From: Candidatus Thalassarchaeum sp.
Lineage (GTDB): Archaea; Thermoplasmatota; Poseidoniia; Poseidoniales; Thalassarchaeaceae
DNA: 64,000 bases
Reading direction: 5' to 3'
Assembly (NCBI GenBank): GCA_022449345.1
Contig: JAKURL010000001.1
Location: forward strand, 14,211 to 78,210
Part shown: in pieces, positions 436-28,856 of the stretch
Layout: every line of letters starts with the position of its first letter
How positions within the stretch are numbered: the first letter of the stretch is position 1
The notes under the pieces: model-generated
Told to the model about the DNA's origin: nothing
What the model saw: the letters and a program-made list of their open reading frames with translations, nothing else
The model's database searches: none
Program-made: the position numbers and the translations under genes

Positions 436-990
436 TCAAACTCCTTTGATTGCTGAATCGACTATCGCAAATACCTCATCTGCAATGAGAGAATCTGCAT
501 TCACCACTAGGTTGTATGGTGTCATTTCGTCAAGGTCAATATCGTATAAGACTCGGTATCTTTCCTTGTCTGCGCTTTGTCTGGCGCTTGATTTGGCTAG
601 GCGGTCTTCGAAACTGCCACCCTCTCGGTTTTGTACACGTCTAGCCCTTTCTTCGTCAGAAGTATCTATCCATACCCTAAGGCAATCAATCCCAAGTTCG
701 TTGGCCCACCAACCAGCCAACCGACTTTCGATAATTTCAGGTCCATCGATGTTATTCATGGCCTCTTTCAGAAGACTATCTAGTGAGCGATCGACGTCCA
801 AATCTTGCTTGCAAAGCTCGCTAAACTCACCCACAGAAAGTCCTCGACGTGAGGCTTCGGCGCGAAACACCTCACCACCATTGAGTGAGGTCCAACCAGT
901 GGATTCCTGTATCTTACCAACTAAAGTAGATGTGCCACTACCTGGAGCCCCACTGATTGTAATTCTAAGCAATGGTTCACCTCCACTCAT
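436..990 (-). CDS. cmk: Archaeal cytidylate kinase
   Basis: P-loop ITISGAPGSGTST, GEVFR, D..LD and ESRLAGW motifs. Start moved to ATG 990 (MSGGEPLL, 184 aa); the track's longer N-terminus overlaps the upstream gene. Confidence 0.92.
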   Translation of the reverse strand: MSGGEPLLRITISGAPGSGTSTLVGKIQESTGWTSLNGGEVFRAEASRRGLSVGEFSELCKQDLDVDRSLDSLLKEAMNNIDGPEIIESRLAGWWANELGIDCLRVWIDTSDEERARRVQNREGGSFEDRLAKSSARQSADKERYRVLYDIDLDEMTPYNLVVNADSLIADEVFAIVDSAIKGV

Positions 991-1891
991 TACGGCATAC
1001 GGTGCAACGCAATCGCCCTGAACTGGTTCGATTGACAATTGCAGATGAACAATCAGGGCAGGCGGTTCCAGCCTTAGGTGGAGCTGAGTGAAGGTTGCCT
1101 CCACGCCTAGATTCTGTGTTGCCTCTCTTGCGAGGGCCATCCCGTGAACGACGCTGCCCTCGACGGGTTGTGGCAGAGGGTTTCTTATCCTCATCCTTCA
1201 ACAAATGTAGCAGCGGCTCAGGAATTGGAAGTCCTTCTAAAACCAAGGGGTGCCTGCCGAAGCGAATTATCTTGATGTGGCGATCAACAATTCTGCCAAG
1301 TGGTGCACTCATTGCGATGTAAGTGATTACCCAGGCTGGGAAAATCCAACAAATCGTATCCATCATTCCCCACATTGGCTGCCATGGAAGACTGACGTAA
1401 CCAACTCTGAACCCAGCAGCTGACTCAGCCATCCAACTAAATATTCCAATGATGAAAACGATTGTAAACATCATTGGTTTCATCATCGACGACTGCATCG
1501 CCATTTGGTCGGGCATCATTTCCAACTGTAGACGGCGCATTTTGTCCGCCCTTGCAGTATCACGTTCCGCTTGGGCTTCTCGCAACTGTTTCGAGATTTG
1601 CTTATTTCTATGTCCAATATGAACTTGGGTCAATGGGTCCATGAAAAATCCACGAATAACAGTGTTCACAATCATAATTGATGAGCCGATTATGAATACC
1701 GTTGGAACGAAATATTCTGAGTGGAAAGGTATTGTTGGTTCAATAATTGTTGCCGCGGTGTCAGCCATCACTGAACGGAGTCCCGGATTGAAGGTTAACA
1801 GCAACATAACACCGAGCAATACTAGCATAGGGGTCATCATGCCCATCGCTGCTTGGCTCTGAGCACCACCTTGCCCAGCAGGCGTCGTCAT
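977..1891 (-). CDS. DUF106 / EMC3-TMCO1 (Oxa1 superfamily) membrane protein with C-terminal basic linker and Zn-ribbon
   Basis: TM helices flank a Met-rich coiled coil (KQLREAQ...MAMQSSMMKPMMFTIVFIIGIFSWM). It sits in its usual position upstream of cmk. The tail carries CPDC...CTVC. Confidence 0.85.
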   Translation of the reverse strand: MTTPAGQGGAQSQAAMGMMTPMLVLLGVMLLLTFNPGLRSVMADTAATIIEPTIPFHSEYFVPTVFIIGSSIMIVNTVIRGFFMDPLTQVHIGHRNKQISKQLREAQAERDTARADKMRRLQLEMMPDQMAMQSSMMKPMMFTIVFIIGIFSWMAESAAGFRVGYVSLPWQPMWGMMDTICWIFPAWVITYIAMSAPLGRIVDRHIKIIRFGRHPLVLEGLPIPEPLLHLLKDEDKKPSATTRRGQRRSRDGPRKRGNTESRRGGNLHSAPPKAGTACPDCSSAIVNRTSSGRLRCTVCRNEWR

Positions 1892-1957: not shown

Positions 1958-3145
1958 TCAACTAAATTGGAAGCTACAAGTTTCACAAGATGAAGCCCCT
2001 ACAGAAGCCTCGCTGCCACAAACAGGGCAAACATCGGGAGTAATCACAGCAGGTTGTTGAGGTTCTTCCTCTTCCTCATCTGATTCTTCACTTTTTTCTT
2101 CAACTTCTTCCTCAGGTTCAACTTCAAAATTTTGCACTTGGGGCACTGATAGATCGACCGTCATATCCGAGTCCGATTCTTCCTCAAGTTCGTCTTGCTC
2201 TTCTACCTCAAGCTCAACTAGATCCAATTCTGATTCCGGCTCGATTTCAGATATCTCTGAAAAGGATCTTGTAGACTCATCTGCCCAATCTGGCAAATTC
2301 GGTTCCTCATCTACTTCGTCTCCAAATGTTGCGCCATGGTAATCCTGAGCATCCGCGACCTTGTACTCACTCTCTGAGTCCCCTTGAATTTCGAAAACCA
2401 CTTCGATTCGTTCATCTTTCTCTATTCGGCCAATAGGCCAAGTGACATGGGTGCCTTCTCTAGCCGACTCTTTGCTAAAATCGACCACCCTTTCGCCAGA
2501 ATGATTTGAACGAACTGTCGATTTTTCGATGTTGAAAGTTCCAGGAACAACATCGTGTAGTGACAGATCTTCCAAGGCGCTATCTGAATCGTTTTGGAAC
2601 ATCAAAAGAATTTCATAACGGCCGGGGCCAGCCGCTGGGAATACCTCTTTTCCGGTTGAGAAGCGACGTCGACGATGTACTACACGAATTAGTGGGGCAC
2701 GATTGCAGTACCTCGTGGCGACTGGACCGAATCTTTCCATGCTGAAATCGGCTCTTATTGGGGCAGCGAGTTTGTCGTTCTGAGGAGAAGGGTCATCAGC
2801 ATGTAATGGGTAACTTATCGTCAATGATTTACCTGGCTGTAATCCAAGTGGGGCAGACGTCCCGACAGTAATCCGTAGCGCATGGCCTTGGGAATCTGGA
2901 GATACCAATTGTTCCTCTAACTGAGTGCCATCTACAACCTCTATCCTATACTGGTCCTCATTGAGGTCCGTGCCTTCCATCTCTATGCGGACCTGATTGG
3001 AAGATGGTATGTTGAAAATACCTGGAATGTCATCTAACAGACGCATGACGTTAACTGGAGCGGAACCTGTGTTTTCAACAACGGTTATGCAATCTAGATC
3101 GGAAGCAACATACGAGCGAATTCGGGAGATTGTTGACCTCTGCAT
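1958..3145 (-). CDS. C-terminal part of a large cytoplasmic beta-sandwich protein (DUF11-like repeats, acidic linker, Zn-ribbon)
   Basis: VENTGSAPV..DDIPG and FQNDSD..LEDLSLHDVVPG..VTWPIGRI resemble DUF11 domains. There is a Glu-rich linker and a CPVC...CETC end. It overlaps the upstream ORF by 71 bp in the +1 frame. Confidence 0.7.
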   Translation of the reverse strand: MQRSTISRIRSYVASDLDCITVVENTGSAPVNVMRLLDDIPGIFNIPSSNQVRIEMEGTDLNEDQYRIEVVDGTQLEEQLVSPDSQGHALRITVGTSAPLGLQPGKSLTISYPLHADDPSPQNDKLAAPIRADFSMERFGPVATRYCNRAPLIRVVHRRRRFSTGKEVFPAAGPGRYEILLMFQNDSDSALEDLSLHDVVPGTFNIEKSTVRSNHSGERVVDFSKESAREGTHVTWPIGRIEKDERIEVVFEIQGDSESEYKVADAQDYHGATFGDEVDEEPNLPDWADESTRSFSEISEIEPESELDLVELEVEEQDELEEESDSDMTVDLSVPQVQNFEVEPEEEVEEKSEESDEEEEEPQQPAVITPDVCPVCGSEASVGASSCETCSFQFS

Positions 3146-4631
3146 CTAGTACCTTGAAACTCCTTTCTTTTAGTTCCAAAATTCCTGTCGATTCTACATT
3201 AGCCCTAGGTAGAATTGAGTAGTTTATCTCATGAGTAAAGTTTGGTTTGTCAATTGCTTCAATTCTCTTTTCAATAGAGTCCCAAAGTCCCTCTGGAGGA
3301 ATGTCCTCTCGAATATCTTCCATATCTAGGAATGGCTCACTACGACCTGCCAGCCAAACGGTAGCACCAGATAGACCGACTACGAATGAAGAACGATTCT
3401 CAACCACCAATTTACAATGGAATACGTCTGGTCTATCATCTTCCTTTGGAGAAACGTAACCGAATTGGCGTGCACGAGAATTTACCGAATCAAACTGCGC
3501 GCGAGAGACTGTCGCTTCGCAAGAATAGGCTGCACTAACTGTTCCAGTTGCGAAGCGTTGAATTGTACGTGTTGTAACTCTTGGTAATATCTCTAGAGAG
3601 GCACTCTCGCCAACAGGTAGCCTCCCAATCCGCCAAACCAATTCATTGTCCTTTATGTCATATTCAGGGCCGTCCACTAGTTCAAAATTCTCAGGCAGGG
3701 CTCTCCTAACTACAACATCGGTCAAACTGACCGGTGCAATATTCTCGACGCTAAGTCGGATTAGAATTTCCTGAGAATGTTCTGAAAATATCATTGAAAG
3801 ACTAGATTCTTGCGGCCTTTCTGGTTCTGTGTCTATATGTTCTCTGAGTATCAGCATTCTAGGACCAGAAGCGGTGTAAGGTAAGTTGGTCGTCTGGGTA
3901 GCGTCTAATTCTCGTACCGTAATTGCCCCACCTCCTATATCAGTCGAATCTGTATTCTGCAGCAAGACTTCTATATCCCAAGCACGATCTTTTCGACTTG
4001 AATTTCGCAGAATCAATTCTCCATCTATCGATTGTTGCCTGACTGTACCATCTGGATTGAGGACTGATTCTTCCTTCTCTCGAAGGGTGACATACAATTT
4101 GTCACCAGGGATTGAATCAACCTCAGCAGCGGGTCTTAAGTTGCTTGAGAGAGCAATTTGAGAGACCTCTTCGCTGGAACCCTTGGATTCTTCCTCTGCT
4201 TCGGTAACAAATGCTCTATCCAAAGCAGCATTCCAATCCTCAACTTCTTCTTCGGCTTCTTCAACACCATCTTCTTCTGCTTCGGGCATTTGTTCTAGAG
4301 AAGTCAGTGTATCATCGAAGGATTGAATATCGAGTTCGTCAACTTCCCAAACTTCCTCTTCCTCTTCGTCTGCGTCGTCAAATCCTGGCGCAGGTGGTGG
4401 TGAAGAATCGAATCCAGTAAAGGCGCGGTGGGGCGGGTCAAAACCCGGCGGAGGTGGCGGTGGTAATTCATCTTGCAATTCCGATACAATCTCTTCTTCC
4501 GACTCTACATCCATCTCTTCCTCGATAACATCACTAAATTCGTCTTCTTCGTCATCGACTCCGAAACCTGGTGGAAGTGGAGGAGGAGGTGGTGGAGGCA
4601 ATCCCGAAGGGGGGGGTGGGGTATCGGACAT
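3075..4631 (-). CDS. N-terminal part of the same protein: polyproline + acidic disordered region followed by a mu-homology-like beta domain
   Basis: Start moved to ATG 4631 (MSDTPPPPSGLPPPPPPP). No signal peptide or TM segment is visible. The folded region begins DKLYVTLREKEESVLNPDGTVRQQSIDGELILRN. Confidence 0.7.
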   Translation of the reverse strand: MSDTPPPPSGLPPPPPPPLPPGFGVDDEEDEFSDVIEEEMDVESEEEIVSELQDELPPPPPPGFDPPHRAFTGFDSSPPPAPGFDDADEEEEEVWEVDELDIQSFDDTLTSLEQMPEAEEDGVEEAEEEVEDWNAALDRAFVTEAEEESKGSSEEVSQIALSSNLRPAAEVDSIPGDKLYVTLREKEESVLNPDGTVRQQSIDGELILRNSSRKDRAWDIEVLLQNTDSTDIGGGAITVRELDATQTTNLPYTASGPRMLILREHIDTEPERPQESSLSMIFSEHSQEILIRLSVENIAPVSLTDVVVRRALPENFELVDGPEYDIKDNELVWRIGRLPVGESASLEILPRVTTRTIQRFATGTVSAAYSCEATVSRAQFDSVNSRARQFGYVSPKEDDRPDVFHCKLVVENRSSFVVGLSGATVWLAGRSEPFLDMEDIREDIPPEGLWDSIEKRIEAIDKPNFTHEINYSILPRANVESTGILELKERSFKVLDAEVNNLPNSLVCCFRSRLHNRC

Positions 4632-4757
4632 GGCAGATGCAGCCTCGAAGGTAGGTGTGGACGCGCATTCGATTGGTTTAACCATTGCTCGCCCACAGTC
4701 CTACGGACTGAATCGAATCACGAATGATTGAATTACTGCTTCTCTTAGCAACCCCTA

Positions 4758-5603: not shown

Positions 5604-6540
5604 GAAGAAAGATTTACTCGCAATCGATGATTTAATCGATGATTTAGATGACATAATCAATTGGGCAATAAGATACAAAAACGATGAAACTATTCATCAA
5701 GATTTCAAGCCATTAGACGGTATGGCAATCGGTTCGATTTACGAGAAACCATCCACTAGAACTCGGGTTTCATTTGAGGTAGGTGTGAGCCGTCTTGGCG
5801 GCCAACCACTCACCCTCCTATCCAATGATATACAACTAGGTAAATCTGAGTCTATTGGCGATACTGCGGCCGTATTATCGCGCTTTTTGGATGGCATAAC
5901 CTACCGATGTTTTGGGCATGCTGATGTTGCAGAACTTGCCCGAACCGCTACAGTTCCGGTAATCAATGCCCTATCTGACCTTCATCACCCTTGTCAATCA
6001 GCAGCAGACTTGATGGCAATTCGTGAACATGCTAAATCAGATGGGCATATCGCTTGGGTCGGAGATGGAAACAATGTATTCCATGACCTAGCACTCGCTG
6101 GTCTTGCTCTAGGATATGATGTAAAATACGCAACGCCAGTTGGTATGGAACCGAATGCAAAAGTCCTTGCTCGTTGTGAAGGAATTGCCTCCAAGACTGG
6201 GGCCAAGATTTCCGGCACGAATGACCCGATTGAAGCAGTCAGCAACGCTGGTGTCGTTTACACCGATATCTTCGTTTCAATGGGTGAAGAACATATGACT
6301 GACAAAATTGCAGTCTTCGAAGGATTCCAAGTAAACGAAGAGTTAGTCTCCCATGCTAACCCAGATTACTTATTCATGCATTGTCTACCAGCCCATCGAG
6401 GGGAAGAGGTTACAGATGCTGTAATCGACTCGCGAAATAGCATCGTTCTATACCAAGCAGAGAATCGGATGTGGGCACAGATGTCAATTCTGACCTATCT
6501 GTGCAACCATGATGCTTGGCTGGCCTATAACGAGATGTAA
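5590..6540 (+). CDS. argF: Ornithine carbamoyltransferase
   Basis: STRTRVSF, HPCQ, DIFVSMG and MHCLP motifs. Confidence 0.95.
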   Translation: MSNTKKKDLLAIDDLIDDLDDIINWAIRYKNDETIHQDFKPLDGMAIGSIYEKPSTRTRVSFEVGVSRLGGQPLTLLSNDIQLGKSESIGDTAAVLSRFLDGITYRCFGHADVAELARTATVPVINALSDLHHPCQSAADLMAIREHAKSDGHIAWVGDGNNVFHDLALAGLALGYDVKYATPVGMEPNAKVLARCEGIASKTGAKISGTNDPIEAVSNAGVVYTDIFVSMGEEHMTDKIAVFEGFQVNEELVSHANPDYLFMHCLPAHRGEEVTDAVIDSRNSIVLYQAENRMWAQMSILTYLCNHDAWLAYNEM

Positions 6541-7431
6541 TCACATCAATACAGCTAAGATTAAGCCGACCATCGTCAAAGTCATTGAGATTTTTATCAA
6601 TCTAGATGCAGCTGTATCCTCTCGCCTTAAGATGTGTTTCTTGACACTCATTAGTGCAAACAGACCAGGGGTTAGGAAAATAAGGTGTGATAATTCGAAA
6701 ATCCCTATCGCAAATGGAGTAAGTAAAGCAACTAAGGTCAGCAGGAGAATTACCCAAGAAGTGGTTCTAGCCTTATCCGCACCAACACGCATTGCATAGG
6801 TATTTCTTCCCTCATCACCACCCATATCCTCAACGTCTTTGACGATTTCACGTGATAGGTTGTATAGGATACCGATTACAAATAGAGACAAGGCTCTTTC
6901 GTTTAGTGGATCAAATAATCCAGCAGCACCGAACAAAACGACTAATCCAACTGAAATTGAAATTGCCAAGTTACCTGGTAAGCCCTTATCTTTCAACCCC
7001 AACAAAACTCTATCATCTTCGTAATTTACCAATAGGGCCAACGCGAGAAACCAGATGCCGATAGTAGGATACCAATCTGCGAAATTATCGGTCATGCCAT
7101 TGGCTATCGATGCCGCGACGAATAGGGAAGTGAAAGATATCAGGCAAGTCACGATGATACCTGTAAGGGCAACTGACTTACTGATTCGACCTGATGGCAA
7201 AGGTCTGTCTGGTCGATTGATTTTGTCGATTTCAAGGTCAAGATAATCATTTAGAGCATTCCAAGATGCCATGAAGGAATATACAGACAATGCTAGCAAG
7301 GTAGTTATGCGGAGATTATTACCCGATGGCAAGTCTTCTAGGGTTAGAATAGCTCCGAGGAATACACCAACAAATCCGGTAATGCAATTTCCGGCCCGGA
7401 AGAGGCCAAGCCAATCACGAACTGTTCCCAC
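6541..7431 (-). CDS. UbiA-family prenyltransferase, probably digeranylgeranylglyceryl-phosphate (DGGGP) synthase
   Basis: NDYLDLEIDKINRPDRPLPSG and REIVKDVEDMGGD motifs; multiple TM helices. Confidence 0.85.
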   Translation of the reverse strand: MGTVRDWLGLFRAGNCITGFVGVFLGAILTLEDLPSGNNLRITTLLALSVYSFMASWNALNDYLDLEIDKINRPDRPLPSGRISKSVALTGIIVTCLISFTSLFVAASIANGMTDNFADWYPTIGIWFLALALLVNYEDDRVLLGLKDKGLPGNLAISISVGLVVLFGAAGLFDPLNERALSLFVIGILYNLSREIVKDVEDMGGDEGRNTYAMRVGADKARTTSWVILLLTLVALLTPFAIGIFELSHLIFLTPGLFALMSVKKHILRREDTAASRLIKISMTLTMVGLILAVLM

Positions 7432-7471
7432 GTGTTACGGGGGACTTTGTCGGTCTTGATTGCTTGCACGG

Positions 7472-7726
7472 TTAAGCCGCTGGAATAAGAGGTTCAGAAG
7501 ATAATGCCCAGACGCAGACTGTGTATACACTACCTCTGAATTGGCCCCTCTGGTGTCCTACTTTTGCAAAGCGGAGATCCTTGGCGAGGATATTTCCTAC
7601 TTGGTTCATTGTTGCACCCCAGCGAAATCTCTCGTTAAGGTGATCAAACACTTCAACGGTATTTGCAGTTCCCTTCTCCTCGAGTAAAACTAGCACTGCT
7701 TCTCGCAATCGTCTTGTACGGGACAT
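7472..7726 (-). CDS. Small winged-helix-like protein (DUF3860-like)
   Basis: GGAGG SD upstream of ATG 7726. TANTVEVFDHLNERFRWGATMNQVGNILAKD resembles the DUF3860 pattern as I recall it. Confidence 0.7.
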   Translation of the reverse strand: MSRTRRLREAVLVLLEEKGTANTVEVFDHLNERFRWGATMNQVGNILAKDLRFAKVGHQRGQFRGSVYTVCVWALSSEPLIPAA

Positions 7727-8025
7727 CAGAATGCCTCCACAGTAATTGCTCTAGAGGCTAGCACTCGTGAGTGCAATCCACTCCAGCTAGATGGACTAAC
7801 ATTGACCTCTATTGCAGGCTTTGGCATAGGCTGCCATCGTCCGTCTATCGCATTTCCATTTGACGAGTTAACCAAAATCTCAGAATTCATTCTGTTTCGG
7901 TTAACAGTTGTCTTGTTTAGGCTTGCAAAGGATACAACTCGGATTGGGGTCGGTCGCTTCCTGTATGTTCTTCGGCTATCGGTCATTGGGCTTCGGTTCA
8001 TGGCCTGATGTCGCTCGGTCAGCAT
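7726..8025 (-). CDS. Hypothetical protein (weak)
   Basis: 99-aa ORF whose stop overlaps the next ATG (TGATG). No recognisable motif. Confidence 0.3.
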   Translation of the reverse strand: MLTERHQAMNRSPMTDSRRTYRKRPTPIRVVSFASLNKTTVNRNRMNSEILVNSSNGNAIDGRWQPMPKPAIEVNVSPSSWSGLHSRVLASRAITVEAF

Positions 8026-8132
8026 ATCAATGAAGACAGAAGAGTGTAAAGTAAAAGTGAAAGTGAATTATTGAACTCTTCTTTGACTCATCCATTGTTT
8101 TCAAATACCGAGCCATGGTCGCCGTGCTACTC

Positions 8133-10678: not shown

Positions 10679-13600
10679 TTAGTCGTTCGTACATAATTCG
10701 CCTTGGCTGGGGAAGCTCGTAGGATCTTTCGGATTGGTATTCCATTTATTTTCACACCTGTTATTGTACCCATCGCCGTCAGAATCTACGAAGGCATCCG
10801 CTGCATCAAATGGGTCGAAGTCAAAGTAGAATTCCCAGCCAGACCACATTCCATCGTTATCGTGATCTTGGTGATAAACCTCGGATCCATCAGCCCATCC
10901 ATCACCATCCGTATCCGCTAGGACTGGATCTGTCTTGTTTTGGAATTCTTCGTAGTTGGTATAATTCTCCAAATCATCATAGAAGCGTCCACCTTTATCC
11001 GTTGTTGGGTCAATGTGACACTCAGCATTTTGTGGATCGTCCCATCCTGGGCAATAGCGATTCAGAAGATGGGTGCGATTCAATCCATCACCGTCAAAGT
11101 CCTCAGAACCATCATCGATACCATCTAGGTCGGAATCTGGCATTCTAGGGTCCATAGGTCCTCTCGCACCAAGAGCATCAAGCGAATTGTTGTCGACCAA
11201 ACCTAGGCTGATAGCTCTCTCCGATGCTGAAACTTCCCACCCATCTGCCAGTAAATCTCCGTCTGTGTCTTCGTCCACAGGATTTGTATCCCATCTATCT
11301 GGGGCTTCTAAAGCATTGAGGAGAGTGTCATTATCGACATCAAAATTAGAATCCGGCATAGAGCCGAAAGATGGGTCTAGTGCCCATCTTCCGTCATTTG
11401 GAATGGTAAATCCAGTTAGGTTCATTTCGTAGATGAAATACTTGGGATCAAGTATTCCATCACTATTACGGTCTCCTGATGTCTGGAATCCCTTGAGATA
11501 ACTATCCCATACCCAACCTCCAGGACCTAGACCACATTCTATCATACTGGTGCAACCGATGGGTAACCAATTCTGAGTAGTTATCCAAAGGCTATGAGAA
11601 TTGGTATTGTGCTGGACTGAGAAAACTTGCATCTCCCAACCATCTGGTTGGCCGTCGTCATCGGTATCGTTATCCAACGGGTTTGTTGCAGATTGCCAAG
11701 GCCGAGGAATGTACAGTACCTCACCACCATCGGATAGCCCATCATCATCAGTATCGGCATTATTTGCATGCGTGATATACTGGTCCGCGCCGTCGATTAC
11801 TTCTTCGCCATCATCCAATCCATCATTGTCCGTATCAAACATTGAAGCGTTGGTGAAATACACTGTCCCGTTCCAAATAAATCCGTCAACCGCTTCTGTG
11901 AAGTCTTCTAATCCATCGCTATCAGTATCCCTGTCGGTGGCATTGGTGTAGGTCTCGTAGTACTCTGTTGCGTCGGACAAACCATCACGATCGGTGTCAT
12001 ACACCCCTGGATCTGAACGAACAATCACATCTCTAACACCCATGTCAACTACTCGAATCGTCCAGCCTATCACTTCGATTCCGTCGATTAATCCGTCATT
12101 ATCCGTATCTTGAACTAGAGGGTCTGTAGAACGTCCATCGACGATTCCGTCACCATCCCTATCTCTAGCGTTGTATTCATCGAGATTGGTAAATCTCTCG
12201 TGATCCTCAACAACAATGGCTAGGTCTTGTAGACGGCTGGTTACTTCTTGACCTACTTCGACGTTGATTGCGTAAACATAACCTTCAGTTGGGGTTTTCA
12301 CGGGGATGTTGACATACTGACTATCTTGTACAGTCCTCACCCAAAGGATGGTTCTGTTAACTTGTACAAATTCCCCAACCTCGACCACGATGTTGTGGAC
12401 TGTAGAAACACCGACTAGGTCGGAATATCGAACGGCTCCATCACCATCTGCATCGTAGCCATCGAAATCAGGGTCTTCTTCGGCGTTACTTCCATCGTTA
12501 GGGTGTATGCCACTATGGTATTCCCATCCATCTGGCATTCCATCTTGGTCGGTATCTGAGATTAGTGGGCTGGTGAAGTTGACTGCACCCCAAGTGTATG
12601 CGACCTCATACTCTTCGACGTTGTTCAGTCCGTCCTCATCTCCGTCGCCATAGGCGTCGGTGGAATTTGCTGGGTTGAGGAGGGTGTTGTAGCAATACTC
12701 GAAACCATCGGGCATACCGTCGCCATCAGTATCCCAGTCTCCAGGTCCATTGAGTCGTCCATCACCATCCATGTCTTGGTTGAACCAAGTCAAATCTCCA
12801 ACGCCACTCATTAGCTCTGTGTATGGAGCATCCAAACGAATTGTTCCGAATTGAGGAACACCACAGTGAACTTGCAATTCCTGAGAACCGTAACCAACCT
12901 CAATACGATCAGGGATTAAATCTCCATCACTATCTTCCTCCAACGGATTTGTATCATAAATTTCTTCAAGGTAGTTTGGCAGTGAATCTGGACCTTGCTT
13001 ATCGATATCAAGAACAGAATCACAAGAATGGTCACCATTTGGCCCTACTGGAAGGTCATTCCAAGTACTGCTTCCAATGATTAATTGCATTTCAGCCTCG
13101 ACTTGAGGGGTAAGGAGTGGGCACCCCCAGTTTGGGTTCAATGGGTCAAGCAGAGTAACTTCGCCTTGCGGAGTTTGAACGGTCTCGGTGTAGAGTGATT
13201 CCCAGCGATCGTTAAGTCCGTCACCATCGCTATCACTTACCGTCGGATTAGTCCCAATTGCAGCTTCCTGTTCATTGGTTAGGCCATCTCGGTCTGGGTC
13301 TCCAAAAGGACCATTGTCGGGATCTGGGAAGGTTTCGTTTTGCTCACCTGTATCTTCATCACCATCTGCATTTTCGTTGGTTATTTCGTCGGTGTCGGGT
13401 TCGCCACTGTCGAGGGGATCTAATCCATTTTCGACTTCCCAACCGTCTTCTAATCCGTCTCCATCTGTGTCATTATTGTCCCAATCTGTACCATAGAGTG
13501 TCTGTTCCATTCTATCTGGAAGACCGTCTCCATCGAAATCTTGACCTGAAACTTGAATCTCATTATCAGTAATAATGACGTCCGAGCCGGCGGAATCGAA

Positions 13601-13720
13601 TCCTCCAGATTCAGTCGTCGAAAGACCTGCATCGATGATAGTGTAGAATCCTGCTAGACAAAGGGTCGCGGCAATGGCCGCGACTGCATATTGATTGTGA
13701 TTCAAAGCCAAAATTCTCAC
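10679..13720 (-). CDS. Membrane-anchored/secreted Ca-binding TSP3-like repeat protein with an internal biotinyl/lipoyl-like domain
   Basis: Hydrophobic N-terminal segment and more than 20 D-x-D-x-D-G-L/M-x-D-x-x-E motifs. Internal barrel-sandwich-like segment at about 12200-12412. Confidence 0.85.
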   Translation of the reverse strand: MRILALNHNQYAVAAIAATLCLAGFYTIIDAGLSTTESGGFDSAGSDVIITDNEIQVSGQDFDGDGLPDRMEQTLYGTDWDNNDTDGDGLEDGWEVENGLDPLDSGEPDTDEITNENADGDEDTGEQNETFPDPDNGPFGDPDRDGLTNEQEAAIGTNPTVSDSDGDGLNDRWESLYTETVQTPQGEVTLLDPLNPNWGCPLLTPQVEAEMQLIIGSSTWNDLPVGPNGDHSCDSVLDIDKQGPDSLPNYLEEIYDTNPLEEDSDGDLIPDRIEVGYGSQELQVHCGVPQFGTIRLDAPYTELMSGVGDLTWFNQDMDGDGRLNGPGDWDTDGDGMPDGFEYCYNTLLNPANSTDAYGDGDEDGLNNVEEYEVAYTWGAVNFTSPLISDTDQDGMPDGWEYHSGIHPNDGSNAEEDPDFDGYDADGDGAVRYSDLVGVSTVHNIVVEVGEFVQVNRTILWVRTVQDSQYVNIPVKTPTEGYVYAINVEVGQEVTSRLQDLAIVVEDHERFTNLDEYNARDRDGDGIVDGRSTDPLVQDTDNDGLIDGIEVIGWTIRVVDMGVRDVIVRSDPGVYDTDRDGLSDATEYYETYTNATDRDTDSDGLEDFTEAVDGFIWNGTVYFTNASMFDTDNDGLDDGEEVIDGADQYITHANNADTDDDGLSDGGEVLYIPRPWQSATNPLDNDTDDDGQPDGWEMQVFSVQHNTNSHSLWITTQNWLPIGCTSMIECGLGPGGWVWDSYLKGFQTSGDRNSDGILDPKYFIYEMNLTGFTIPNDGRWALDPSFGSMPDSNFDVDNDTLLNALEAPDRWDTNPVDEDTDGDLLADGWEVSASERAISLGLVDNNSLDALGARGPMDPRMPDSDLDGIDDGSEDFDGDGLNRTHLLNRYCPGWDDPQNAECHIDPTTDKGGRFYDDLENYTNYEEFQNKTDPVLADTDGDGWADGSEVYHQDHDNDGMWSGWEFYFDFDPFDAADAFVDSDGDGYNNRCENKWNTNPKDPTSFPSQGELCTND

Positions 13721-22055: not shown

Positions 22056-25000
22056 TCATTCACTTTCAGAATCGTCATCTGAACCCTCATACTCCTCATC
22101 TTCGTAATATGAATCATCATCATCGTAGTAATAATCCTCATCGCCACTTCTAGACCTGCTAACGAAGAATCCAACCATCCCCACAGCCACCAGTAATACT
22201 CCACCCATGAGTAGGTAAACCATGGTGTCTTCATCACTTCCTTCATCCGTTATTGGCGCTTGCACAACAACTCCACTAATTGGATGTGCAGGATTATCAA
22301 AGTCGTCATCGACAATGATGTACAATACGGGTTGACCTGGATCTCCCGCAACCCATTCGAACCTAGCGTACACTGAGGAAGTTTCAGCACTCAATTCCAA
22401 GTCGATACTATTGGTTTCCGCACGCCATTTTCCATCATTGGTAAGTTCGTAAAGGTTGATTTCGATTGTGCCATCTCTCTTTCCGCTGTTTGACCAATAT
22501 GTCTCGATAATAACAGTAGTATCTTGCAGAGGGTCCTTAGGAGTGACCACGACATTGTCCAAAGCCGGATTAAATTCCATTACTCGAAGAGCAACTGCAC
22601 GTGGGGCGTATTCACTACCTAATCCCTGAACCTCATTTCCTGCTCTATCAGTTGAAGTCACCCAAAACATGATTCTATCGCCGTCTTCGATTGTGAATCC
22701 TTCAAGATTCGGAGTGAAGTCAAGGCGACCTTGGAAAACATCTCTTCCATCTTCATCGAGTAGCATCTGTAGGCTACCTGTATCTTCGGTTCCAGCAACT
22801 GGTTGGTTGCTCCTGAGGAAAATCCATGCAACCTGAAGATCCTCATCGGGTAGACCTATTTCATCCACGATAGTTATGGATACAAGGACGTCTTCGAGCA
22901 AGTCTGATTCCAATACTGTTAGCGAAGAATCTGGATAATTCATTTGGTCAAACAATATTGTTGGAGATTTACTATCCACAGTAACTTTTCCATCTGTGTT
23001 GCTTGTCGAAGTTCCAACTCCTGGGACATTGAGGACCGCCGTAGTAAGGTCCATTGTAGGACTAAATGGAGCTCGCATTGGCAAAGTCATTGTTGTGAAC
23101 CAAGTTCCATCTTCATTTACATCTGCAACAGAGGAGATTACCTCAGTTCCGTAAATTAATGTCATCTCCATCTGCAAATCATCGGGTATTTCCGTGAATT
23201 CTTCTCCAGAGCCTGCATAGAAGATCCCGCCAGTCATCTCAAATTCATCACCCTGCCGGAGGTACAGATGTGCATCCTCTGCAAGTATAATTGGAGGTGT
23301 CAAATCTGACATGCTAGAAGCTATTGCGACTAGGGAATTATCTAACTCCCAAGTCAACTCGCCTATGTTATTTTGATATGCGACTTCAGTAATTTCGTCG
23401 ATGATACTGACGCTAGGTTTACAGTTAAATTGATCCTCTTCCCATGGATAATCCCAAGAAATTTCGAACATCACTGCGAGTTCAACTACCGCCGATGTAA
23501 TTTGCTGAGTCTGCACTGATAGTGGGGAAACCATCGAGTCATCTGCAGTCCAAATCTCACCGGTAACAGGTTTGTAGGAAATCTTTCCGAGGTTATCCAG
23601 GCTATCTCCGCAAAGCATGATGGTGATATTGTCTAGAGTTTGCAAACCATTGGGCTCGCTAATCTGCATCCTGAAGGTATGTGGCATTCCAGCTAGAAGG
23701 TAACCTGTTGATCTGTCTAAGTGGAATCCACTGTTGATAATCTCGGTCGGTTCATCTGTAGCAATAATTACGCTCGCCCAAGAGTTTTCGGCACCTGGAC
23801 CGCCACCGGTTCCGCCTTCTTGATAGGTCAGACCTGCCCAATCCGTACCTTCTAGGTAAAGGTGTACTGGACTGTTGAAGGACTGGCCAGATACATCTAT
23901 TCCAGCGAAGTTCACCTGTTGCTCTCCAGTCATTCCAGCAGAAAGTGGCTGAACTTGAGATAGATATTCTTCTTCTTCAGCAATACCGTTGAAATTAATA
24001 TCGTCCGAATCAGCTCTCCAATAATGCAATGTGATTGTTTCGCCTCTAGCCTGAGGCTCTTCTACGGTTACATACAAACTGAGAGGGAGTGATGGATCCC
24101 AAACCTTACCATTGGCGTTTTGTAATCCTGCAGCCGTCACTACCTGAAGAGGTCCAGCAATTGGTGCTGTGAAATCGTTCACCATAATTACAGTTGGAGG
24201 TTGTCCTGATACATCTTCGCCTCCAATAGAACCTGCCAAGGGACCAACTCTAAACAGATCTGGCGAGGCTGTAATCTCGGATAGGCCGCTTGGAGTATTG
24301 AATATTCCAGAGAACTGTCCGTTATCGTGAGAATCCAATAATAGTACGGAATTTGATAGATTTAGTCTGACTTGGAAATCAGAACCCATCGGTCTTGTAT
24401 CGAGTGTGTTCTGGAATCTAATAGACCCAGTGACATTGATTTGACTGCCCTCTAATATCGGGAATGGGTAGAAGGTAGAGAATTGATTGGAAATTAAGCG
24501 ATTATATTGATCACGAATTTCGAATGAATCGATCTGTAAATCATTCTCAACGGCGTTACCAGAGACACCACTAACTGAATTGGCTGGCCAAATTGTTACC
24601 TCATTTGTATCGTAAGCTTGGGCAATCCAATTTATCCTATCGACATCATTCCAATTCCAAGATAGTTCGAATCTCCAAGTTATCTGGACATCCATCCAAC
24701 CATCTCCACCATCAATCACAGAAACCTGACTCGATGACGTGTTTAGAGGCATTAATTGAGATCCAGAGGATTGGGAGAACATTACCGAACCAGAATTCAT
24801 ACCCCATGAACCATCCGCAGAATTAGTTACGTCAAATGAAATTGTTTCACCATCGGAAGCGTGACCAACCAGTGAAACCAATTGCAAATCCGAATTGTCG
24901 TAAAGATGTCTGTGATTTGTAACAATTTCGTACACTGAACCATCTGGGTGGAAAACTTGTGGGACTGAAAAATCCTTGTTGGTTATCATTAATTCATGAA

Positions 25001-28000
25001 TTATTTGCCCATCAATCAAAACTTGTCCAGCAGAAGCTGTAACGTTAGTCGGGATGTGAATGAGGACTAGAGTCGGTTCCGCAGCAGTAGCCGCACTGTG
25101 GTAATTGGCTAGGGAACTTGTCAAATCCGAAACAGTCTCTGTCAAGGAATATGATATCGCTAGTCTTGAAAGGGTAATCGTCTGAGTTGACGAACTCTCC
25201 AAGGTTAGTCCAACCTCTTTCCAAACCCTTCCATTTGCACTAGAATCGGTCCAAGTAGCGCTCATTGCCGAAATCGATGCAACCTGATTTGGAGAGAATG
25301 ATAGGTAGGTAAAAAATGGATTTGAGGTAGAGGTGGATTTTTGATATCCATTTACACCTAAGTCTACCGAACTATCAAATCCATCTGCATCTGAAGAAAT
25401 TGCTAACAGACCAGAGTTTGCGATTGCTCCATCCGGAACTAATACAGTCACGCTCTGTGGCACACCTGAAGTCAAATACAACTCGATAGATGTAGAAGCG
25501 ATTTGGTTAGGATTCGAACTTGGAGAATCTTCCAAAATTGTAGTTTGCCAACCAAGATGCCCTCTACCTTCAGAGTATGGGAAATACCAATCATCCGTGC
25601 CATCCTCAGCAACGTCGATTGCAATATCTCGAGCCGGTTCTCCATAGATTGACTTAATCAACATCTTATCGATAAATCCGTTTGGTGGGAGCATTATTTC
25701 CAACGAATAGCCATTTATCGGAGTTGCAAATGAAATATAACCTCCTTGAGATGTGTTTCCTAACGAATTTCCTCCGTGACCAAAGACCTCAATCAGAACA
25801 TTGTTTGAGGCGTTCCCAAGGAAATTTATTCTTTTTATTGGCCTAATTGAATCGATATAATTCGATGTAATTGTGCTTGTAACTGCAGTTGCATTAAGCA
25901 AATCGTCTATGACCTCGACACCTGCAGGAATCGTCCAGCCATTGAAGTCAAATAATTCCGCGGAAAGAATTCTCGGACCACCTATCTCAACATTGCTAAT
26001 GATTGGAGTAGAGATGGTACTGGAAGAAGATAATTCCAATCTGATATTAACTGCTGGGTGAGTTTCAGAGTCAAGTCCAGCCAGATTTACTGGGAAATCA
26101 AGATTCTCAAATCCAATAACTGGTTGACCGGATACCGCATCAAGGATTGTTGCGGTGACAGTGGAATTATCATCGATTCTTCCTTCAATCTCAACTGTGC
26201 CAAGGTTGAATGAATCCAATCCGTTTAGCTGAATTGGTTCACTTATCCAATCCCCTGGGGAGCTGAAATGTCCCTGTCGAACCCCGACATTATCTATGTA
26301 CCAGCCTTGCTGCAGTGAACTAGTGTAACCATACTTATCGGCAGCGATGAATTTGAATCTGACATCGCTACCAGCCCACTCTCCCATCGGCAGTTCATAT
26401 GAATTGAAATCAGACTCTCCACAGCTCTCATCTGTCCATATTGGCAGTCCGTCTAGATTAGTTAAGATATAGCCGGTTCCTGAGACATATGTCGACATAG
26501 TATCTGTATACCAACCTGGGTCGACGAGTTGCCAAGAGCCACCGTCTACTTCAACCATTAAGGCTCCACCATTCATTTCACCTTGGAAATTACTGTATGA
26601 CCAGCACATCCACATTTCGAATGAAAAGAAAGTTATTCCAGATTCGGGAACAGAAATTACTGGAGAAATTAAACTGGCTTCTTTCACACTTGTTGTGAAT
26701 GAACCTGCAGCACCTATGCTGTATAGATAGGGGAATGAGGCCGCCTCTGAAGGGCCATAATCGTCGGTTACGATTGGAGTTAAGGCCCAGCCACAATTGT
26801 AACTGTTACAATTATTCTTGGTATTGGTTCTACTAAAACCATCGACATCATCAACTTCAGGGTCGGTTACCTGTGAATCTTCAAAACCATGTTGGTCGTC
26901 AATATATCCTGAATTCAATGTTAGGAAGCGCCATTCGTTTCCTGTTGGGGTTGTAGGGGTGTTTCCGTCTAAATATACACTGAATAGTGTTGAACCAGAA
27001 GAATCGACTGGTCTGAATCCATAAACGGTTAGACCTTCTCTACCATCTGGGTCTGGGAAATTGGTGGTACTCTGTCCGTAACCTACGCTACTATCGGTCT
27101 GAACAACAAATCTTAGTGTAATGTTGGAAACCTGCCATGCTGTGGGGATATCATTTAGAATTGTAACCATTCCTCCACTATCATCTAAATGAGTAACTCC
27201 GTTCATGTCGGTATATCCATAGTTAGGGATTGATCCAGTGCGTGAGCGGCACTGGATAGTGGTACTACTGGTTCCGGTGCTAGAAATGTCTGTCCAAGTA
27301 GCACCATTATCGTTTGATAATTCAATGCAGGCATTATCCCAACCTGAGCCTTCCAAGTCCCAATGCAAATCGAATTCGATATCAGTCGCTCCTGATAGAT
27401 CCAAACCGGAATATGTAAGGTAGCCTAGTTGATTATGTCCGTAGTAACAGTAAGTACCTAGGTTCTGAGACATGTATCCATTAATGTCGCAACCATGATG
27501 CCAAACGCCACTATCGTCTCCATCATTATGGTAATTGATATTGTCAAGGAACCAACCAGGTGAGCCGGTCGAAGATGCAGAGGTCACAATTCTAAATCTA
27601 AATTGAATTTCGGAATGATTGGCGATTAGGGAAATGTTAGACAAGTTGGTGGAAGAAGAGACCCAACCACTAACTGCATCTCCGCCGAAAACTGGAATTG
27701 TATCAGATGTAGGTGTGCCTTGAACGTTCAAATCTCCCATCGGAATTGAGTGGGAATAACCCGAGTCTAATTCGGTCCATGTCCAATCTCCCCACGTACC
27801 ATCACTCATTCGGTATTCGACCCAAGCGGCATCTCCAGATTCCAAATCATGCCAGTGGTCAAATGAGAAAGAATAATTCACAATTGTGTCAGGATTTCCT
27901 GGAATATCTGAGGCTGGCAGTAAGAACCATGCATCTGTCTCCGGTTCTAGTGGACTACCTGGCAAAGTTCCGACTACAACTCCTCCCTCCGAAGCAGACG

Positions 28001-28856
28001 CAGGGACAACTCCATGAGTCAATTGTTGTTGGTCACCTACTATGACTCCCCCTAAATCAAGTAGGGATGCGAACCAAATTTCCTGTCCGTCACAAATATA
28101 GAATTCTCCTTCAATTTCAGATGCATTTAGGCTAGTCACCTTATCGTAATACATTGAGAAATCATTACCCCACAGAAGATAGGAGCCTCCGTAGGGACAG
28201 GTGGAATTACCGACTTGCAGGGGAGTGTGTTCGACTGTGACTGTTCCATTTTGCACGGTGCCGTTCACATCTCCAGATGGAGGTAAACCACTTCCATTTT
28301 CAATTGTCATATTTGTTTGACAGAGTGGTTCTAATGAAAGTATCTCATTAGCGTCCAATGCCCCATCAAAGTCGAGATCGAAACCGGAAGTTAAGTTGTA
28401 TACCAATAATCCCCCACAGTCAGATGAGACAGAAGGGTTCTGCACTTCCCATAAGTGAGAACCAGGGCCTGAATGATAATCCTCCGACATAGCGATTGAA
28501 AAATTGCCATTATCGTCGAAATCCCATAATGAAGATGAAGAACCATCATCAAACATTGTTAGGTTACCATCGAGGAGAGAGTCTGTAGTTCCATCGTATG
28601 TACCATTGTCAAAATCATCGCCTTTAATTGAGATTGAATCAATGGTTGAGGAGGCCATAGGATTGTTATTGATTGATATCCAACCATCTACAATTGTCTC
28701 ATTGCTCGGGACATTAAATGCATTAACTGTCACACCATCATCATCAGGATTAATCGGAGTCGAGATACTCCAATTTGTCACCCCTGCGCTGGCAAATGGA
28801 GCGAATATCATCAACATGACGAGGGCGGTTGCTAGTCTTCGGCGGCTGGCGGGCAT
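22056..28856 (-). CDS. Giant (2266 aa) surface protein: signal peptide, Cys-flanked module, about 3 jelly-roll-like beta-sandwiches, CARDB-like domain, C-terminal TM and Tyr/Asp tail
   Basis: Signal MPASRRRLATALVMLMIFAPFASA; recurring ..F.FRF......GW..DN motifs; TM VYLLMGGVLLVAVGMVGFFV. Confidence 0.88.
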   Translation of the reverse strand: MPASRRRLATALVMLMIFAPFASAGVTNWSISTPINPDDDGVTVNAFNVPSNETIVDGWISINNNPMASSTIDSISIKGDDFDNGTYDGTTDSLLDGNLTMFDDGSSSSLWDFDDNGNFSIAMSEDYHSGPGSHLWEVQNPSVSSDCGGLLVYNLTSGFDLDFDGALDANEILSLEPLCQTNMTIENGSGLPPSGDVNGTVQNGTVTVEHTPLQVGNSTCPYGGSYLLWGNDFSMYYDKVTSLNASEIEGEFYICDGQEIWFASLLDLGGVIVGDQQQLTHGVVPASASEGGVVVGTLPGSPLEPETDAWFLLPASDIPGNPDTIVNYSFSFDHWHDLESGDAAWVEYRMSDGTWGDWTWTELDSGYSHSIPMGDLNVQGTPTSDTIPVFGGDAVSGWVSSSTNLSNISLIANHSEIQFRFRIVTSASSTGSPGWFLDNINYHNDGDDSGVWHHGCDINGYMSQNLGTYCYYGHNQLGYLTYSGLDLSGATDIEFDLHWDLEGSGWDNACIELSNDNGATWTDISSTGTSSTTIQCRSRTGSIPNYGYTDMNGVTHLDDSGGMVTILNDIPTAWQVSNITLRFVVQTDSSVGYGQSTTNFPDPDGREGLTVYGFRPVDSSGSTLFSVYLDGNTPTTPTGNEWRFLTLNSGYIDDQHGFEDSQVTDPEVDDVDGFSRTNTKNNCNSYNCGWALTPIVTDDYGPSEAASFPYLYSIGAAGSFTTSVKEASLISPVISVPESGITFFSFEMWMCWSYSNFQGEMNGGALMVEVDGGSWQLVDPGWYTDTMSTYVSGTGYILTNLDGLPIWTDESCGESDFNSYELPMGEWAGSDVRFKFIAADKYGYTSSLQQGWYIDNVGVRQGHFSSPGDWISEPIQLNGLDSFNLGTVEIEGRIDDNSTVTATILDAVSGQPVIGFENLDFPVNLAGLDSETHPAVNIRLELSSSSTISTPIISNVEIGGPRILSAELFDFNGWTIPAGVEVIDDLLNATAVTSTITSNYIDSIRPIKRINFLGNASNNVLIEVFGHGGNSLGNTSQGGYISFATPINGYSLEIMLPPNGFIDKMLIKSIYGEPARDIAIDVAEDGTDDWYFPYSEGRGHLGWQTTILEDSPSSNPNQIASTSIELYLTSGVPQSVTVLVPDGAIANSGLLAISSDADGFDSSVDLGVNGYQKSTSTSNPFFTYLSFSPNQVASISAMSATWTDSSANGRVWKEVGLTLESSSTQTITLSRLAISYSLTETVSDLTSSLANYHSAATAAEPTLVLIHIPTNVTASAGQVLIDGQIIHELMITNKDFSVPQVFHPDGSVYEIVTNHRHLYDNSDLQLVSLVGHASDGETISFDVTNSADGSWGMNSGSVMFSQSSGSQLMPLNTSSSQVSVIDGGDGWMDVQITWRFELSWNWNDVDRINWIAQAYDTNEVTIWPANSVSGVSGNAVENDLQIDSFEIRDQYNRLISNQFSTFYPFPILEGSQINVTGSIRFQNTLDTRPMGSDFQVRLNLSNSVLLLDSHDNGQFSGIFNTPSGLSEITASPDLFRVGPLAGSIGGEDVSGQPPTVIMVNDFTAPIAGPLQVVTAAGLQNANGKVWDPSLPLSLYVTVEEPQARGETITLHYWRADSDDINFNGIAEEEEYLSQVQPLSAGMTGEQQVNFAGIDVSGQSFNSPVHLYLEGTDWAGLTYQEGGTGGGPGAENSWASVIIATDEPTEIINSGFHLDRSTGYLLAGMPHTFRMQISEPNGLQTLDNITIMLCGDSLDNLGKISYKPVTGEIWTADDSMVSPLSVQTQQITSAVVELAVMFEISWDYPWEEDQFNCKPSVSIIDEITEVAYQNNIGELTWELDNSLVAIASSMSDLTPPIILAEDAHLYLRQGDEFEMTGGIFYAGSGEEFTEIPDDLQMEMTLIYGTEVISSVADVNEDGTWFTTMTLPMRAPFSPTMDLTTAVLNVPGVGTSTSNTDGKVTVDSKSPTILFDQMNYPDSSLTVLESDLLEDVLVSITIVDEIGLPDEDLQVAWIFLRSNQPVAGTEDTGSLQMLLDEDGRDVFQGRLDFTPNLEGFTIEDGDRIMFWVTSTDRAGNEVQGLGSEYAPRAVALRVMEFNPALDNVVVTPKDPLQDTTVIIETYWSNSGKRDGTIEINLYELTNDGKWRAETNSIDLELSAETSSVYARFEWVAGDPGQPVLYIIVDDDFDNPAHPISGVVVQAPITDEGSDEDTMVYLLMGGVLLVAVGMVGFFVSRSRSGDEDYYYDDDDSYYEDEEYEGSDDDSESE

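Follow-up and report, generated by a model that had tools for sequence, protein, structure and literature searches.

A putative mu-homology-like module in a five-beta-domain protein family of Marine Group II archaea, encoded by a gene in two reading frames in Candidatus Thalassarchaeum

In eukaryotes the mu-homology domain (MHD) is the cargo- and partner-binding platform of the mu subunits of the adaptor protein (AP) complexes, of delta-COP, and of the muniscins and stonins. Muniscins and stonins share a layout in which a disordered Pro-rich region leads to a C-terminal MHD, and muniscins additionally have an N-terminal membrane-binding domain. Here we analyze a gene for an MHD-like protein in a 64,000-nucleotide stretch of contig JAKURL010000001.1 from Candidatus Thalassarchaeum sp. 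(the window; positions 14,211 to 78,210 of the contig). As a first-pass annotation made from the sequence alone had supposed, the host is a non-Asgard archaeon, belonging to the Thalassarchaeaceae in the order Poseidoniales (Thermoplasmatota, Marine Group IIb), and relatives of the protein at 92% identity come from 'Candidatus Thalassarchaeum'. Within an archaeal family with five beta domains and an MHD-like part, the gene is probably the orthologue from the planktonic Poseidoniales (Marine Group II). It is cut in two in this assembly, and the intact protein may act as a scaffold.

The nearest described archaeal proteins are the candidates listed as 'Adap_comp_sub (PF00928)' by Eme et al. (2023, Nature, PMC10307638; Table S3 and Supplementary section 4.3.1). 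They occur sparsely in most Asgard phyla and are never fused to a longin domain, and the authors conclude that the AP building blocks were inherited by eukaryotes from Asgard archaea; non-Asgard members are not mentioned in that work. Makarova et al. (2024, mBio, PMC10936438) described adaptin-appendage-like proteins (Ig plus TBP-fold) in ESCRT neighborhoods of Methanobacteriales and Halobacteriales. These are a precedent for adaptor-type beta domains in non-Asgard archaea, some with zinc ribbons, but they contain an appendage ('ear') rather than an MHD and have another gene context: neither Vps4 nor ESCRT-III genes adjoin our gene in the loci compared. The DUF11/CLIPPER domain (PF01345), which has a CnaA-like Ig fold, is typical of fibrillar adhesin stalks in bacteria and archaea (bioRxiv 10.1101/2025.04.25.650565; PDB 9IFR), and many DUF11 domains lack the Lys-Asn isopeptide bond (bioRxiv 10.1101/2025.04.25.650565).

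By sequence comparison, the window protein and the Asgard Adap_comp_sub candidates are one family. The Jordarchaeia entry of Table S3 aligns over 309 aa with residues 194-492 of P0003, the closest relative of the window protein (BLASTP E 8e-17), and a Helarchaeales entry has the same N-terminal sequence as our representative P0208. Motifs and N-terminal subtypes of the Hel-, Loki- and Hermodarchaeial entries recur in our representatives of 20-28% identity, and tblastn places Asgard-type members on the window at E 5e-18 to 6e-10. In both groups the MHD-like part is never joined to a longin domain. The window protein differs from the Asgard candidates in its Poseidoniales host (Thermoplasmatota), in belonging to a clan of its own, and in its Pro-rich acidic N-terminal tail and C-terminal zinc ribbon. 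An incomplete search of the literature found no paper on this family, or on any MHD, in Poseidoniales and no report of the family outside Asgard archaea. The family is known from Asgard archaea, and its conserved, specially decorated presence across Poseidoniales appears to be unreported.

The first-pass annotation had read one protein over positions 1958-4631 and overlooked a frameshift. The gene is instead made up of two overlapping open reading frames (ORFs) in different frames of the minus strand:

3075-4685, minus strand: ORF1, 536 aa, with the disordered N-terminal tail, the MHD-like module and an extra beta region
1958-3145, minus strand: ORF2, 395 aa, equal to residues 519-912 of the intact homologue, with two DUF11-like domains, an acidic tail and a zinc ribbon

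The conserved part of the protein was delimited with its relatives, of which an exhaustive HMMER search over cluster representatives returned 435 at E<=1e-3. Many are 600-750 aa long and align over query residues 195-785 at 20-30% identity, so the conserved unit is a module of about 590 residues, with five beta domains. P0003 is intact (912 aa; locus L001, from a 'Candidatus Thermoplasmatota archaeon' genome). Its AlphaFold2 model, computed from 73 aligned sequences, is all-beta, with a predicted local distance difference test (pLDDT) score >90 for residues 190-790 and low confidence in the tails (1-149 and 817-885). The beta-rich region, which had been expected behind the N-terminal tail, opens with LYVTLREKEESV at residue 197 (~nt 4097). 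From its N-terminus on, the module comprises:

3792-4106, minus strand: MHD-like subdomain A, the N-terminal part (residues 194-298), six strands
3501-3791, minus strand: MHD-like subdomain B (residues 299-395), matched both by DUF11/CLIPPER (306-400) and by PF00928 (302-366, profile positions 122-194)
3345-3500, minus strand: strands aligned with the return strands of mu2 (residues 396-447), the most conserved block of the family
3144-3344, minus strand: extra beta strands (residues 448-514) without a counterpart in eukaryotic MHDs
2717-3139, minus strand: DUF11-like beta-sandwich domain 4 (homologue residues 520-660)
2312-2716, minus strand: DUF11-like beta-sandwich domain 5 (homologue residues 661-795), which opens with a conserved basic H-x-R-R-x4-G-K

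The window protein and P0003 both have all family-invariant residues (E203, G222, N228, Y270, E282, W351, P419, N430, S432, P481, G544 and N702). Conserved across the family in subdomain A are E203, G222, N228, S230, R234, Y270 and E282. The most conserved block reads P419-x2-W/F422-x-C424-x3-F-x-N430-x-S432, and the window protein departs there at two commonly conserved aromatic positions, with F422 for W and V428 for F. The basic H-x-R-R-x4-G-K motif of domain 5 (window ~2650-2680, minus strand; homologue residues 674-683) is conserved across the family despite the very acidic character of the protein; of 73 sequences, 62 have R677 and 69 have K683.

The mu-homology reading was compared with known structures. 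An AlphaFold sub-model of window residues 185-512, built from 80 sequences, has a pLDDT of 97 and a predicted template modeling (TM) score of 0.89. When 350,542 PDB chains were searched with it in Foldseek, ranks 1-34 were all AP mu MHDs or COPI/delta-COP chains, as were 48 of the top 50 matches, with E ~2e-9, probability 1.0 and target-normalized TM scores of 0.55-0.74. The top matches were delta-COP/COPI chains (5nzu_D, 4o8q) and those of mu2 (6bnt, 1h6e, 5wrk), mu3 (4ikn) and mu4 (4mdr, 3l81); a mu1 chain (4en2) came at rank 41. No muniscin structure was among the top 50, and the first match other than an MHD was an integrin (TM 0.10). For the region containing residues 195-418, the best PDB match is the MHD of AP-1 to AP-4 mu and of delta-COP (e.g. 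1BXX, 1H6E, 4IKN, 3L81, 4O8Q), which agrees with the AP2-mu and delta-COP likeness first proposed for it. The archaeal protein is unlike these domains in that identity is 8-16% and in that its folded region begins with the MHD-like part and goes on with three more beta domains. A TM score of 0.7 to a 250-residue target cannot be reached by one subdomain, and therefore both subdomains and their mutual arrangement match, although TM scores do not discriminate a topology with subdomain B inserted from one of tandem sandwiches.

These models argue strongly that the first ~250 residues of the module adopt the MHD fold and that its second subdomain is a DUF11/CLIPPER-type Ig sandwich, and we hold this family and fold assignment with high confidence. 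Hundreds of added sequences made a very-high-confidence structure prediction possible, and the MHD assignment can be based on the fold rather than on sub-threshold Pfam matches.

Profile searches, which the first-pass annotation had proposed as a check, also returned an MHD match. PF00928 (Adap_comp_sub) is the second-best Pfam match of ORF1 (17.5 bits, E 0.003, residues 302-366; 17.6 bits in P0003) and is matched by 30 of 64 family members at E<=0.01, with a best E of 1.9e-10. Most of these matches cover profile positions 120-230, and that of P0147 covers 12-234 of 259. One of the 18 members inspected singly (P0165, 35.2 bits) passes the PF00928 threshold. The muHD profile PF10291 matched one of 64 relatives, weakly (E 0.0048). 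A search of PDB sequences with P0003 as a single sequence gave chance matches only (E>0.9). With the family profile, the top 24 matches were all AP mu subunits (AP-3, AP-1 and AP-2; E 1e-3 to 1.5e-2), and further, separate weak matches coincided exactly with the opening strands of the MHDs in AP-4 mu and delta-COP.

Profiles were also compared directly in hhalign with an alignment of the mu1-mu4 C-terminal domains, whose sequences were checked against PDB chains at ~2.2 bits per residue. Family residues 190-450 aligned with a probability of 80% and E 1.3e-5 in local mode and with up to 90% and E 1.6e-7 in global mode; overall, probabilities were 77-90% over 195-232 columns, covering template positions 13-277/282. 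The alignment is colinear from DKLYVTLRE/NELFLDVLE, the first strand whose MHD-like pattern had been picked out by eye, through to the mu C-terminus. Profiles made from Poseidoniales members only (E 1.2e-6) and from Asgard-type members only each reproduce it, and domain 4, used as a control against the mu profile, gave E 0.47. The family shares with mu MHDs the Glu and Gly that are conserved in strands one and two, W351 in the place of the W of 'IVWKI', and the aromatic of the penultimate strand. Together the profiles suggest a moderate colinear similarity over the whole MHD.

DUF11 is the other domain recognized in these residues. The match at residues 306-400 scores 32.6 bits in ORF1 and 36.4 bits in P0003, above the gathering threshold of 24.6, and is found in 61 of 64 relatives; NCBIfam has no model for the protein beyond the DUF11 repeat. 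Residues 298-395, 515-660 and 661-795 are mutually homologous DUF11/CLIPPER-type sandwiches by profile comparison (probability 95-97%), in keeping with the DUF11-like sandwiches named earlier. The relation of B, 4 and 5 is visible by profiles only, with almost no similarity in blastp among the protein's own domains. Compared with DUF11/CLIPPER adhesins, the protein is alike in its above-threshold Pfam match and its three domains of that type. It is unlike them in being cytoplasmic, in having no signal peptide or anchor, and in lacking a uniform tandem stalk.

Several observations weigh against an MHD with an adaptor role. The window protein is below the PF00928 gathering score (17.5 vs 31.6 bits). 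Subdomain B, whose sequence had been noted to fit both an MHD and DUF11, matches PF00928 but scores higher as DUF11. Most of the profile score comes from this subdomain (alone E 1e-5), which is equally a DUF11 domain, and subdomain A alone reaches no better than E 0.003, in 34 columns that are placed correctly. A match to mu subdomain B is also obtained with domain 5 of this protein (E 2.6e-4, probability 42%). The hallmark return of the chain into subdomain A depends on a low-confidence tail of the alignment: global hhalign sets residues 396-438 opposite the mu2 return strands 394-435, with VSRAQFDS against SGLKVRYL and P419-x-x-F422-x-C424 against mu2 K420-W421-V-R423, all at low posterior confidence. 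By alignment, the mu2 pocket for YxxΦ signals (Φ, bulky hydrophobic; F174, D176, K203, W421 and R423) is not conserved. D176, which binds the Tyr of the signal, falls on the non-conserved T200, R423 corresponds to C424, and only the aromatics match (F174 to Y198, W421 to W/F422). Pfam finds no longin domain (PF01217, Clat_adaptor_s), the archaeal N-terminus being a disordered Pro/acid tail, and no adaptin large-subunit partner or coat gene is linked to the gene, whose neighbors are housekeeping genes. Finally, the gene may be non-functional in this genome, with the intact protein perhaps not made.

Some of these points would also be expected of a generic chain of E-set/DUF11 Ig-like sandwiches, resembling an MHD only because MHD subdomains are Ig-like and having no specific link to adaptors. 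DUF11 outscores PF00928 over shared residues, subdomain B and domains 4 and 5 are homologous to one another, domain 5 and the N-terminal subdomain score as just given, and in Foldseek the full-length model is dominated by long multi-Ig proteins (TM ~0.14), among them integrin legs and antigen I/II. We regard such a chain as unlikely, since with the 328-residue sub-model MHDs alone occupy ranks 1-34, above thousands of tandem-Ig chains in the PDB. In addition, the TM score to the whole target reaches up to 0.74, beyond the range of one subdomain (less than half of the target), the alignment runs colinearly from the first MHD strand to the last, and the weak N-terminal PDB matches are placed exactly at the MHD start of mu4 and delta-COP. 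The MHD-like reading is supported by fold and profile evidence, not by Pfam's own threshold.

Outside the module the protein has two tails and a zinc ribbon:

4119-4685, minus strand: low-complexity N-terminal tail (residues 1-189) with polyproline runs, four [P/T]GF[G/D] motifs and Glu/Asp stretches, pLDDT <60
2045-2311, minus strand: acidic disordered C-terminal tail (homologue residues 796-884), net charge -37
1961-2044, minus strand: C-terminal four-cysteine zinc ribbon CPVC-x12-CETC, at the end of ORF2

The first-pass annotation described the repeats, the acidic stretch, the ribbon and the lack of export signals correctly. The [P/T]GF[G/D] motifs are at ORF1 residues 39, 80, 90 and 100 and the polyproline runs at 23, 30, 75 and 96; shuffling the N-terminal 190 aa 20,000 times gave four motif copies in no case (shuffled mean 0.013). 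Asp and Glu account for 58 of the first 190 residues of ORF1. Residues 1-189 carry a net charge of -53 and the complete intact homologue one of -128, and every domain of the protein is acidic. Among 216 close homologues, all have the zinc ribbon, and their N-terminal tails, ~190-390 residues long, contain 37-41 prolines and three PxG[FLMW] motifs at the median. Both the ribbon and the Pro-rich PxG[FLMW] tail are missing from Asgard-type members. In distant Poseidoniales members PPAPPG[L/M] is repeated many times, and one member from the Thalassarchaeaceae (P0131) is without the Poseidoniales-type tail. A possible parallel to PxGΦ is PPGΦ, the ligand bound by GYF domains in eukaryotes.

No transmembrane segment or signal-like N-terminus was found in ORF1 or ORF2 (maximum 19-aa Kyte-Doolittle averages of 1.29 and 0.97), nor was a transmembrane segment or signal peptide found in 50 relatives, many of which start directly with the beta module. 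As predicted from these features, the protein is cytoplasmic and soluble. DUF11/CLIPPER domains typically build fibrillar adhesin stalks and the window encodes many very large proteins of surface type, so we also considered a cell-surface stalk or adhesin-like protein exported by an unrecognized route. This is very improbable given that neither the window ORFs nor the 50 relatives have a signal peptide, transmembrane segment or sorting signal, that a four-cysteine zinc ribbon and proline- and acid-rich tails are present, and that Asgard-type members open directly with the beta module.

The layout of this predicted cytoplasmic protein had been likened to that of muniscins and stonins. The likeness holds in so far as a long disordered Pro-rich segment precedes the MHD-like module and there is no longin domain, as in the muniscins (FCHo1/2, Syp1, SGIP1) and stonins. 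It fails in that the archaeal protein has no F-BAR or other N-terminal domain and its MHD-like module is not C-terminal, ~460 more residues following it. By analogy with these adaptors, but with no vesicle coat implied, we tentatively propose a scaffold or adaptor mechanism. The intact protein would be a soluble scaffold for protein-protein interactions, its MHD-like platform would bind partner proteins, and its disordered, motif-rich tails would give multivalent, flexible contacts. The mu2 subunit carries basic lipid-binding patches, whereas all domains of the archaeal protein are acidic and the Tyr-binding D176 is not conserved. Direct binding of anionic lipids as in mu2 appears unlikely because every domain is acidic. 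With the mu2-type Tyr pocket also not conserved, the ligands of the archaeal protein, if it is an adaptor, would therefore differ from those of mu2. The family points to a function without vesicle coats, which bears on the ancestral role of the MHD, and the Poseidoniales-specific tails are a natural experiment in which a beta-platform has gained motif-rich disordered arms.

To survey homologues in Marine Group II and Asgard genomes, as the first-pass annotation had advised, we scanned the species-representative genomes of GTDB with a degenerate DNA pattern that we wrote by hand for the conserved block E-x3-P-x2-W-x-C-x3-F-x-N-x-S-x-F. The scan gave at least 120 loci, at least 119 of which are true family members by hidden Markov model. 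By best match and record title, at least 91 loci are of the Poseidoniales type, from Poseidoniaceae and Thalassarchaeaceae, and the gene is a conserved core gene of Poseidoniales at these species-representative loci. At least 28 loci are of the Asgard type, from Promethearchaeota and Hod-, Hermod- and Thorarchaeota, including eight 'uncultured archaeon' contigs. The locus from MK-D1 (Promethearchaeum syntrophicum; L091) was rejected as a chance match in a non-coding frame. In a big protein database, a profile search with one alignment (A2) returned Marine Group II proteins only.

Two contigs labeled bacterial, CAXQWT010000087.1 (L013, 'Salipiger bermudensis') and JAOMAZ010000003.1 (L027, 'Deltaproteobacteria bacterium'), carry Poseidoniales-type genes. 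The encoded members are 38-41% identical to Marine Group II references, and the contigs are probably misbinned or contaminant.

We placed 184 modules in a neighbor-joining tree, which is unrooted and drawn from an incomplete survey. All 89 Poseidoniales-labeled sequences and seven unlabeled representatives formed one clan, set off by a branch of length 0.39, and no Asgard-labeled sequence was inside it. Mean distances were ~1.0 within a roughly defined Poseidoniales group vs 1.9 within the rest. A single origin in Poseidoniales fits this tree, possibly by an old transfer from Asgard archaea. It is a speculative and rather doubtful extension that the cargo-binding module of eukaryotic AP and COPI adaptors became a conserved core gene of Poseidoniales, an archaeal order among the most abundant in the ocean, by ancient Asgard transfer or deeper archaeal descent, and serves with its muniscin-like layout (a long Pro-rich tail of repeated PxGΦ motifs before the MHD) as a short-motif-binding adaptor in cells without known endomembranes. 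The presence of the family throughout Poseidoniales weakens the argument that the domain is a signature shared by Asgard archaea and eukaryotes; a rooted phylogeny is needed to part transfer from ancestry.

Among the representatives, one comes from Candidatus Harpocratesius ('COG1470 family protein') and another from Candidatus Borrarchaeum. In a 1,322-aa protein of Candidatus Borrarchaeum (P0263 / P0280) the MHD-like module is combined with a C-terminal NACHT match (STAND-type NTPase) below threshold (E 3.7e-5, 24.1 vs 26.7 bits). One Asgard-type contig (L006) has two family members 3.3 kb apart (601-2709 and 6001-8118) and, as a further neighbor, a 720-aa protein with a weak LTD match only. 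On another contig (L007) a gene for an Arf/Ras-family small GTPase (1596-2207) lies 3.8 kb upstream of member P0173. Some Asgard-type members have N-terminal extensions, helical in P0173, which we had read as HEAT repeats; Pfam gave no match and this reading was rejected.

The split of the window gene is due to a deletion, located by alignment to L001:

3127-3132, minus strand: junction of the 11-nt deletion, where ACAATACAGTA is missing between GAGGTCAACAA and TCTCCCGA

Relative to L001, 11 nt (ACAATACAGTA) are missing at window ~3129/3130, and because of this the gene is divided over two frames. Past ~nt 3129, ORF1 is read out of frame as a nonsense tail of 20 residues, with the stop codon at 3075-3077. 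Its start codon is ambiguous, being either at 4685 (MVKPIEC..., as in P0003) or at 4631 (MSDTPPPP, as in P0045). Over 2,897 aligned nt the window and L001 genes are 98.8% identical and the deletion is the sole gap. Each of the best 120 database matches is one protein, 757-979 aa in length, with 100% coverage of the merged query. An intact single reading frame is absent from the window gene and present in every homologue. Programmed frameshifting was ruled out, as the site is not slippery and the frame is kept in every relative.

It is quite possible, though somewhat short of an even chance, that the gene is here a recent pseudogene or a truncated two-piece variant without function and that the deletion is real rather than an assembly error. 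A single 11-nt deletion without a slippery site, in a gene whose homologues are all in frame, fits such a variant, as do the database records: the exact ORF2 sequence is a separate NCBI protein of 395 aa (P0378) from a 143-kb contig, and ORF1 has no NCBI record. Speaking against it, the remainder of the gene is nearly identical to the intact relative, and the folded part has not decayed further, amino-acid changes being almost all in the disordered tail. Moreover, metagenome-assembled contigs can carry consensus errors or minority variants, and the gene is otherwise conserved across the order Poseidoniales.

The genes around the orthologue are consistent with an archaeon. They include a GPN-loop GTPase, a UbiA prenyltransferase and a run of EMC3/DUF106, cmk and cbf5. 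Gene order is kept in Poseidoniales relatives down to 40% identity, with the GPN GTPase divergent on one side and EMC3/DUF106, cmk and cbf5 after the gene. This synteny is conserved within Poseidoniales only, and Asgard contexts are unrelated. The downstream EMC3-cmk-cbf5 run resembles what we take to be an ordinary conserved archaeal cluster, and as Asgard contexts differ, no functional inference was drawn from the neighborhood. In one relative (L004) the insertase gene and the MHD-like gene overlap by 22 nt, which suggests that the MHD-like and EMC3/DUF106 genes are co-transcribed. The EMC3/TMCO1 (DUF106) insertase homologue directly downstream in the window (977-1891, minus strand) also ends in a CxxC...CxxC zinc ribbon. 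A small DUF3860 protein (7472-7726, minus strand) keeps its position in L001, L004 and L005, all Poseidoniales loci.

Elsewhere in the window, three genes encode very large probable surface proteins. One has TSP3 calcium-binding repeats (10679-13720, minus strand), one has FG-GAP, Fn3-like and NEW3 domains (37823-43471, plus strand), and one has Big_3_5, MG4 and DUF4129 (58968-63932, minus strand). A 2,266-aa ORF (22056-28856, minus strand) has no Pfam match at E<=1e-4. A 970-aa protein (53432-56344, plus strand) is an unusual fusion of a weakly matched response-regulator receiver, DUF5752 and a pyruvate phosphate dikinase ATP-binding domain.

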